From: Myxococcales bacterium
Lineage (GTDB): Bacteria > Myxococcota_A > Polyangia > JAHFDS01
Direction: 5' to 3'
Length of the DNA: 28,756 nucleotides
NCBI GenBank assembly: GCA_023248855.1
Contig: JAHFDS010000057.1
Coordinates: 1-28,756 of the forward strand
The translations under genes were made by a program, and so were the position numbers. Positions 1,925 through 2,036 of the stretch are shown piece by piece (the first letter of the stretch is position 1; each line of letters starts with the position of its first letter). The notes beneath the pieces are model-generated. The model did no database searches, was not told where the DNA came from, and saw only the letters and a program-made list of their open reading frames with translations.

Positions 1925-2036
1925 TGCGTGCAACGGGGGTAAGATGCCTCACAATAATTACAAGTATTTGGAATTACTATATTTTCTTCGTTTTCATCGT
2001 TGTCGATATTCGCATTTTGGATTACTGTTTTTCTAG
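1925..2036 (+). promoter_or_regulatory. AT-rich (~30% GC) intergenic island directly upstream of the PilZ gene. It contains two copies of TTTGGA(A)TTACT (1967-1978 and 2016-2026). Putative promoter/regulator-binding region.
   Basis: Composition drops sharply from ~70% GC to ~30% GC over ~110 bp. A direct repeat is visible by eye, and -10-like TATATT/TACTAT hexamers are present. There is no obvious Shine-Dalgarno before the ATG at 2037. Confidence 0.4.

Follow-up and report, generated by a model that had tools for sequence, protein, structure and literature searches.

Leaderless genes with a TANNNT −10 hexamer 6–9 nt upstream of the start codon are widespread in Actinobacteria and Deinococcus-Thermus. 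AT-rich DNA further upstream is a feature of UP elements, the AT-rich upstream promoter regions found for example at −40 to −60 of E. coli rrnB P1, and of the Myxococcus xanthus carQRS promoter, where the CarD-CarG AT-hook regulator binds AT-rich tracts. Pilus genes are known from another promoter type, the sigma-54 promoters with NtrC/PilR-type enhancer-binding proteins and DNA bending by integration host factor (IHF), which is used for pilA. Here we describe an AT-rich island between pilD and a gene for a PilZ-domain protein in a 28,756-nt contig (JAHFDS010000057.1; the window) of a Myxococcales bacterium. The island is very probably a conserved, dedicated promoter or regulatory region of the PilZ gene. 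We further favor, with somewhat better than even confidence, a proximal promoter TTGTCG-17-TACTGT that would produce a leaderless PilZ mRNA, with AT-rich blocks upstream of it enhancing or regulating transcription. As in described leaderless genes, a −10-like hexamer lies 6–9 nt before ATG or GTG, a Shine-Dalgarno sequence is missing and the layout recurs on the contig. Unlike them, the PilZ transcript start is predicted from sequence, the host is an uncultured member of the Polyangia represented by a metagenome-assembled genome (MAG), and the PilZ orthologues switch between leaderless and Shine-Dalgarno-led layouts.

The window has a GC content of 70.7% over 28.7 kb. The spacer between pilD and the PilZ gene measures 131 bp and consists of two parts, 1906–1939 with 76% GC and 1940–2036 with 29.9% GC. 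The initial annotation had reported an AT-rich island at 1925–2036 (35.7% GC over that interval, with an 80-bp minimum of 26%) starting directly after the pilD stop codon; the island is real but begins about 35 bp later, behind the GC-rich part with its GC hairpin at 1918–1939. It is the sole 80-bp stretch of the window with less than 45% GC. The next lowest stretch (6262–6356, 47% GC) covers the start of a reverse-strand gene at 5241–6314 and the divergent region towards recJ (6633, forward strand); the ATG of that gene at 6284 is preceded by a GAGG Shine-Dalgarno sequence, and the stretch is a more ordinary divergent promoter region. The PilZ protein contains the RxxxR (RRHRR) and DxSxxG (DLSTAG) motifs and scores 50.7 bits against the TIGR02266 domain, under the cutoff of 68.7 bits. 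Its start at 2037 is secure, because an in-frame TAG (2034–2036) lies directly upstream of the ATG and an alignment of 20 homologues shows conservation of the N-terminal M[RK]IL[LF]A[RP]F (MRILLARF in the window). An identical PilZ protein was found on ENA and Logan metagenome contigs, and the relatives are labeled as Polyangia or Myxococcales MAGs.

We compared the spacer with orthologous pilD-spacer-PilZ loci; scans of genomes and metagenomes to widen the comparison gave 3 and 7 loci, and P0004, P0005, and P0008 stood outside the DNA comparison. Ranked by the identity of their PilZ proteins to that of the window, these are L003, L007, and L014 (about 90%), L004 (55%), L005 and L017 (50%), and the more distant L011 (47%) and L018, L012, and L009 (45–48%). 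Four-fold degenerate sites of the PilZ gene are 51–61% identical between the window and L003, L007, or L014 and are essentially saturated, the third positions of the genome being about 90% G or C. Identity to the same three loci was 76–85% over 1940–2036 and 83–88% over 1929–1952, versus 43–52% over 1906–1928. The tract 1991–1999 within the island is poorly conserved. Across 1929–2033 there is not one indel among five aligned orthologues, which include L004. Because identity is well above that of saturated synonymous sites and indels are absent, we conclude that purifying selection acts on the DNA sequence of the island and constrains its spacing. The initial annotation had named orthologous loci without an AT-rich spacer as an argument against its reading. 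The strong AT-rich dip (60-bp minimum of 25–33% GC) persists in orthologues whose proteins are about 50% identical or more, is less pronounced in L011 (45%), and is missing from the most distant orthologue group.

The same conservation pattern effectively refutes the suggestion that the island is a functionless remnant of horizontally acquired AT-rich DNA, which we now regard as hardly credible. Its low GC content is out of keeping with a genome of 70% GC, as would be expected of such a remnant, but it stands at the same place and gap-free in orthologues down to 55% protein identity and is conserved far above synonymous sites. It also has no similarity to any plasmid record and no terminal repeats besides an internal 19-nt repeat.

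We next turn to the core promoter. When the 100 nt upstream of each start codon were searched for TTGNNN-N16–18-TANNNT, nine loci gave a match, each of them exactly one, with a spacer of 17 nt in all nine (Table 1). A pair of this kind 5–9 nt from the start occurs in at most 1% of local shuffles per lineage. Because a single 17-nt-spaced pair is found upstream of the PilZ gene in nine loci, the promoter between the two genes appears to be ancestral. Within the −10 hexamer the first T, the A, and the last T (T−12, A−11, and T−7) are invariant in five orthologues. The pair would constitute a core promoter of the housekeeping sigma-70/sigma-A type. Two of the loci, L017 (486–573) and L005 (2859–3001), share TTGACG-17-TAGAGT-YGTAAGCA; L017 runs straight from this sequence into the ATG, whereas L005 continues with about 20 extra nt carrying a GGAG Shine-Dalgarno-like sequence, which looks as if one gene family had gained or lost a leader. 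Measured from the ATG, the AT-rich part spans −86 to −27 in the window and −114 to −55 in L005; once the L005 leader (about 26 nt) is subtracted, its distance from the predicted transcription start is about the same in both. The L005 clade also has a near-perfect palindrome, TATCCATAACTATTGGATA, within its AT-rich stretch and shortly before the −35 hexamer (about 2935–2953 in L005). This palindrome, absent from the window, could be an operator.

Table 1. Features of the pilD-PilZ spacer, candidate promoter pairs of orthologous loci, and further candidate leaderless genes of the window
Feature	Position	Strand	Sequence	Remarks
pilD (prepilin peptidase)	1090–1905	+		Pfam A24_N_bact 2e-32, Peptidase_A24 7e-20
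GC-rich inverted repeat	1918–1939	+	CCCCCGATGC / GCAACGGGGG	predicted hairpin; arms 10 nt, 90% complementary
Conserved block	1929–1952	+	GCAACGGGGGTAAGATGCCTCAC	not AT-rich
Distal AT-rich block	1956–1988	+	AATTACAAGT-N6-AATT..TATATTTTCTT	about −81 to −49 from ATG; invariant columns in five orthologues
Invariant columns, five aligned sequences	1957–1965		ATT.CAAGT	
Invariant columns, five aligned sequences	1970–1986		G.AATT..TA.ATT.TC	
Invariant columns, five aligned sequences	2000–2002		TTG	
Invariant columns, five aligned sequences	2012–2013		GC	
Invariant columns, five aligned sequences	2020–2031		G.TTAC..TTTT	
Candidate −35 hexamer	2000–2005	+	TTGTCG	TTG invariant in nine orthologous loci
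Repeat copy 2	2014–2032	+	ATTTTGGATTACTGTTTTT	overlaps −10 hexamer; 88% identical in close relatives
Candidate −10 hexamer	2023–2028	+	TACTGT	TANNNT form
Predicted transcription start	2035–2037	+		7–9 nt downstream of −10 hexamer; predicted leader 0–2 nt
PilZ-domain gene	2037–2702	+		221 aa; Pfam PilZ 1.4e-11
Promoter pair, window			TTGTCG / TACTGT	8 nt to ATG
Promoter pair, L003, L007, L014			TTGCCT, TTGCTG, TTGCCA / TACTGT	8 nt to ATG
Promoter pair, L004			TTGATT / TACCTT	6 nt to GTG
Promoter pair, L017			TTGACG / TAGAGT	9 nt to ATG; near-canonical
Promoter pair, L005			TTGACG / TAGAGT	27 nt to start codon, with GGAG Shine-Dalgarno
Promoter pair, L011			TTGACG / TATAGT	25 nt to start codon, with GGAG Shine-Dalgarno
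Promoter pair, L018			TTGGAC / TATTGT	28 nt to start codon, with GGGAGG Shine-Dalgarno
DUF429 gene	start 9937	−		TANNNT 5–7 nt before start codon, no Shine-Dalgarno
Metallo-beta-lactamase-fold gene	start 20657	+		TANNNT 5–7 nt before start codon, no Shine-Dalgarno
S41 peptidase gene	start 25878	−		TANNNT 5–7 nt before start codon, no Shine-Dalgarno
ABC ATPase gene	start 28242	−		TANNNT 5–7 nt before start codon, no Shine-Dalgarno

The lack of a visible Shine-Dalgarno sequence before the PilZ ATG, already pointed out in the initial annotation, was confirmed over the 20 nt upstream: TTGGATTACTGTTTTTCTAG contains no GGAG, GAGG, or AGGA. Several other genes of the window carry GGAGG or GAGG 4–9 nt upstream of their start. 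Since only 8 nt separate the −10 hexamer from the ATG, transcription is expected to start at or within 2 nt of the start codon and the mRNA is probably leaderless, which would explain why the Shine-Dalgarno sequence is missing, an explanation not considered in the initial annotation. Ribosomes would initiate directly on the 5′-terminal AUG of such an mRNA. Among myxobacterial genes, pexR is a proposed case of a leaderless sigma-A transcript (PMC12754779), and our literature search found no genome-wide survey of leaderless genes in Myxococcota.

The layout is not confined to the PilZ gene. Both strands of the window together contain 46 TANNNT hexamers and nine TANNNT-N5–8-ATG/GTG sites, and six of these nine are in-frame N-terminal gene starts (1090, 2037, 9937, 20657, 25878, and 28242; binomial P about 2e-8), an enrichment partly confounded by TANNNT being commoner in less GC-rich intergenic DNA and by our own assignment of the starts. 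The genes at the six starts are supported by third-position GC, and Pfam domain boundaries agree with the starts. One of them is pilD, in which TACCGT (1079–1084) is followed after 5 nt by the GTG at 1090; its L005 orthologue reads TAGCGT-N8-TTG. The start codons of pilD and of a divergent 306-aa gene of unassigned family (ATG 1076, reverse strand) are only 13 bp apart, so that both divergent promoters would lie inside the coding sequence of the other gene, with no room for leaders. Leaderless transcripts may be frequent in this lineage of Polyangia.

The confounding of the enrichment test is one of several points that weigh against a proximal promoter with a leaderless transcript. The fit to the E. 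coli consensus is weak (four of six positions for TTGTCG, three of six for TACTGT), and a strict scan of 1700–2300 for sigma-70 promoters, which must match at 9 of 12 positions, and for terminators on either strand found nothing; the promoter call therefore rests on comparative evidence and not on consensus strength. The close relatives are not independent of one another, and the leaderless layout is seen in effectively three lineages. Given the 8-nt gap of the window clade, the canonical +1 falls at 2035, which makes a 2-nt leader as likely as none. Further upstream, TATATTTTCTT matches the UP-element consensus only partially. Finally, a second conserved TANNNT hexamer, TATATT at 1978–1983, could be an alternative or additional −10.

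This last point leads to a distal promoter, either on its own or in tandem with the proximal one, in which TATATT would direct a start near 1986–1990 and give an AU-rich, unstructured leader of about 47–50 nt that recruits ribosomes without a Shine-Dalgarno sequence, for example via ribosomal protein S1. TATATT matches the −10 consensus at five of six positions, and all five orthologues preserve its TANNNT form, L003 with TAAATT. The two copies of a direct repeat in the island share the layout ATTACT.T.TTTT, each holding a −10-like TANNNT hexamer followed by a T-run, and the island RNA shows no more structure than shuffled sequences do (z = +0.87). We rank TATATT second because it lacks a TTG-type −35 hexamer at 16–18 nt: TAATTA matches the consensus at two of six positions, and the conserved TTACAA stands at a spacing of just 14 nt. 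Moreover, the proximal pair alone was retrieved by the pattern search, and a distal start leaves unexplained both the 17-nt spacing and 6–9 nt start distance kept in three lineages and the canonical promoter of L017 at the proximal position. We therefore consider the distal promoter unlikely and retain the proximal pair as the preferred core promoter.

The direct repeat itself was first recognized as two near-identical TTTGGA(A)TTACT motifs, and both were found where they had been reported, TTTGGAATTACT at 1967–1978 and TTTGGATTACT at 2016–2026, with no other match in the window and none expected from whole-window shuffles. The full repeat comprises 19 nt with 79% identity (1966–1984 and 2014–2032, offset 48). 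Against the T-rich composition of the island the repeat is only marginally unusual (p about 0.02–0.06), as an equally good gap-free repeat occurs in 57 and the 12/11 one-indel repeat in 24 of 1000 dinucleotide shuffles. Across relatives the sole part common to both copies is ATTACT; the TTTGG half is not conserved and reads TTCAG, TTCGA, or CTTGG.

One regulator could bind the two copies, 48 bp apart, as paired operators, with a third ATTAC at 1957–1961; the proximal site overlaps the −10 hexamer, so that binding there would repress. Such a model is compatible with the promoter model. It gains from the uniqueness of the repeat in the window, from the ATTACT core kept in both copies in four close relatives, from the strictly conserved, gap-free spacing, and from the rarity of the one-indel repeat in local shuffles. 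It loses by the gap-free repeat not being significant against local composition, by the variable TTTGG half, and by a copy-to-copy similarity of 9 of 21 positions in L004 (counted by hand from the alignment). Nor is a transcription factor gene retained in the synteny, and the shared core coincides with the −10-like hexamers, so that no regulator is needed to account for the similarity: the copies could reflect two −10-like regions, as in tandem promoters, rather than a regulator site. Taken as a paired operator, the repeat is not well supported, and we hold this interpretation to be doubtful.

Upstream of the proximal pair, the distal AT-rich block contains repeat copy 1 and TATATT. Its two portions, AATTACAAGT..AATT and TATATTTTCTT (1978–1988), lie at −81 to −62 and at −59 to −49 from the ATG. 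The position of the T-tract in TATATTTTCTT and its strictly conserved spacing resemble a UP element. Besides the partial consensus match, the island is unlike a UP element in that the proximal subsite (1991–1999) is poorly conserved and in that conservation extends further upstream, as far as about −81 and into the block at −85 to −108, whose sequence is not AT-rich; this extent suggests something more than a UP element. The blocks between −81 and −49 would raise or regulate promoter activity through UP-like contacts with the alpha subunit of RNA polymerase, through a DNA-binding protein, or both, and the upstream blocks fit a UP-like element and/or a site for a regulator or architectural protein. 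The paired short AATT-type tracts, which precede a predicted promoter of a GC-rich myxobacterium, also recall the CarD-CarG target. CarD and CarG are present only in Cystobacterineae and absent from Sorangiineae and Nannocystineae (PMC9304148); as the relatives of the contig are labeled Polyangia or Myxococcales MAGs, CarD is not a plausible binder here.

A bolder reading takes the whole 108-bp gap-free module (1929–2036) as a lineage-specific switch for a receptor of cyclic di-GMP (c-di-GMP), read by a regulator via the (A/G)ATTAC repeats at 1956–1961, 1972–1977, and 2021–2026, and combines it with orthologues that switch between leaderless and Shine-Dalgarno-led mRNAs on the same core promoter. 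We put this forward tentatively, as a conjecture with the odds clearly against it. At the pilD end of the spacer, the 3′ arm of the predicted GC-rich hairpin is conserved in L003, L007, and L014. The hairpin has no U-tract and was not called an intrinsic terminator by the scan; it is a possible terminator-like element, and as such it would help to separate the pilD and PilZ transcription units.

Among the regulators proposed in the initial annotation were IHF and the neighboring NtrC-type activator. For IHF, no match to the consensus WATCAANNNNTTR was found in the island even with one mismatch, the sole match in the window with at most one mismatch being at 28353–28365, so the proposal was not borne out. 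With sigma-54/NtrC promoters the locus has in common a pilus-related neighborhood and an NtrC-family gene in the window. It differs in that the forward strand of the island is without GG-N10-GC and without an IHF consensus, and in that the activator gene (13669–15120) lies at a distance of 11 kb and does not belong to the conserved synteny. The forward strand of the island contains no TGGCAC-N5-TTGC sequence; the only island match is on the reverse strand (1929–1944) with three mismatches, and sigma-54-type matches across the window are at chance level (74 found versus 88.5 expected). The NtrC-type activator was likewise not supported as a candidate.

Two further sets of motifs were examined and rejected. 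A perfect −24-like box in L007 and L014, CTGGCACG, comes without a −12 element and has been retained neither in the window nor in L003; extracytoplasmic function (ECF)-type GGAAC..CGT and FliA-type motifs, sought by eye, are not conserved in the relatives. What stands of the promoter or regulatory-island reading is thus selection on the island, the conserved −35/−10 pair, and the AT-rich part upstream of that pair, whilst IHF, sigma-54 with NtrC, and a conserved TTTGG have fallen away. Directly upstream of the NtrC-family activator gene we noted a tRNA-Leu(CAA) gene (13609–13693, forward strand). Because it overlaps the 5′ end of the stop-to-stop frame 13669–15120, the activator gene should start further downstream, at 13726 or 13768.

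The initial annotation had also allowed for a small AT-rich RNA. In Rfam the best match of the island was RgsA with 17 bits (E = 0.06) against a gathering score of 88, and only one tRNA, the tRNA-Leu outside the island, passes gathering in the window. Folding gave no excess stability on either strand (z-scores from −0.64 to +0.87), and the covariation term of the alignment fold was negligible at −1 kcal/mol. A small RNA, or an antisense transcript into pilD from a reverse-strand promoter TCGACA-19-TATAGT, is therefore very unlikely. It could appeal to the weak RgsA match and to reverse-strand hexamers that each match the consensus at five of six positions, but a 19-nt spacer exceeds the usual length, L003 (TTTAGT) and L004 (TATAAC) have not kept the −10, and no terminator was found on either strand.

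A coding function of the island is still harder to maintain. A hydrophobic 38-codon peptide (1924–2040), whose TGA overlaps the PilZ ATG as ATGA, would allow translational coupling; no stop codon interrupts its frame in the window, L007, or L014, L004 keeps most of it open, and the close relatives have the ATGA overlap. Substitutions are spread flatly over the codon positions (0.21, 0.21, and 0.16) despite saturated synonymous sites in the flanking genes, and third-position GC would be about 30%, far from the roughly 90% of real genes of the window. An in-frame TAA interrupts L003, the L004 frame stops 20 nt before the GTG, and the start codon is not conserved; T-rich DNA, moreover, yields hydrophobic open frames by chance. 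We consider such a peptide extremely improbable. Another open reading frame (ORF), of 30 aa (1944–2036), was discarded on the same grounds: loss of the start codon, an in-frame stop in L003, and a flat substitution pattern over the codon positions.

Two other genes of the window deserve mention. The ORF at 17986–20766 on the reverse strand, of about 900 aa, matches Pfam MVP_shoulder (5e-25) and Vault_3 (5e-7) and is a homologue of the major vault protein (MVP) in a bacterium. A preprint (bioRxiv 10.1101/872010) has described MVP homologues from bacteria, to which this ORF would add a Polyangia example. The metallo-beta-lactamase-fold protein at 20609–21394 on the forward strand has a sub-threshold likeness to the anti-Pycsar nuclease Apyc1 (42.6 bits, cutoff 50).

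Taken alone, the island is an ordinary promoter-type element of little weight. Its leaderless layout would explain a start codon without a Shine-Dalgarno sequence, which matters for calling gene starts and annotating MAGs of Myxococcota. The series of orthologues, in which the same core promoter appears to feed leaderless or Shine-Dalgarno-led mRNAs, would provide a natural example of turnover in the mode of translation initiation. Should ATTACTNTNTTT and AATTACAAGT recur upstream of other pilus or c-di-GMP genes, this would point to a regulon. For the organism itself, a PilZ receptor with its own constrained control region beside pilD points to a regulated c-di-GMP effector linked to type IV pilus biology.

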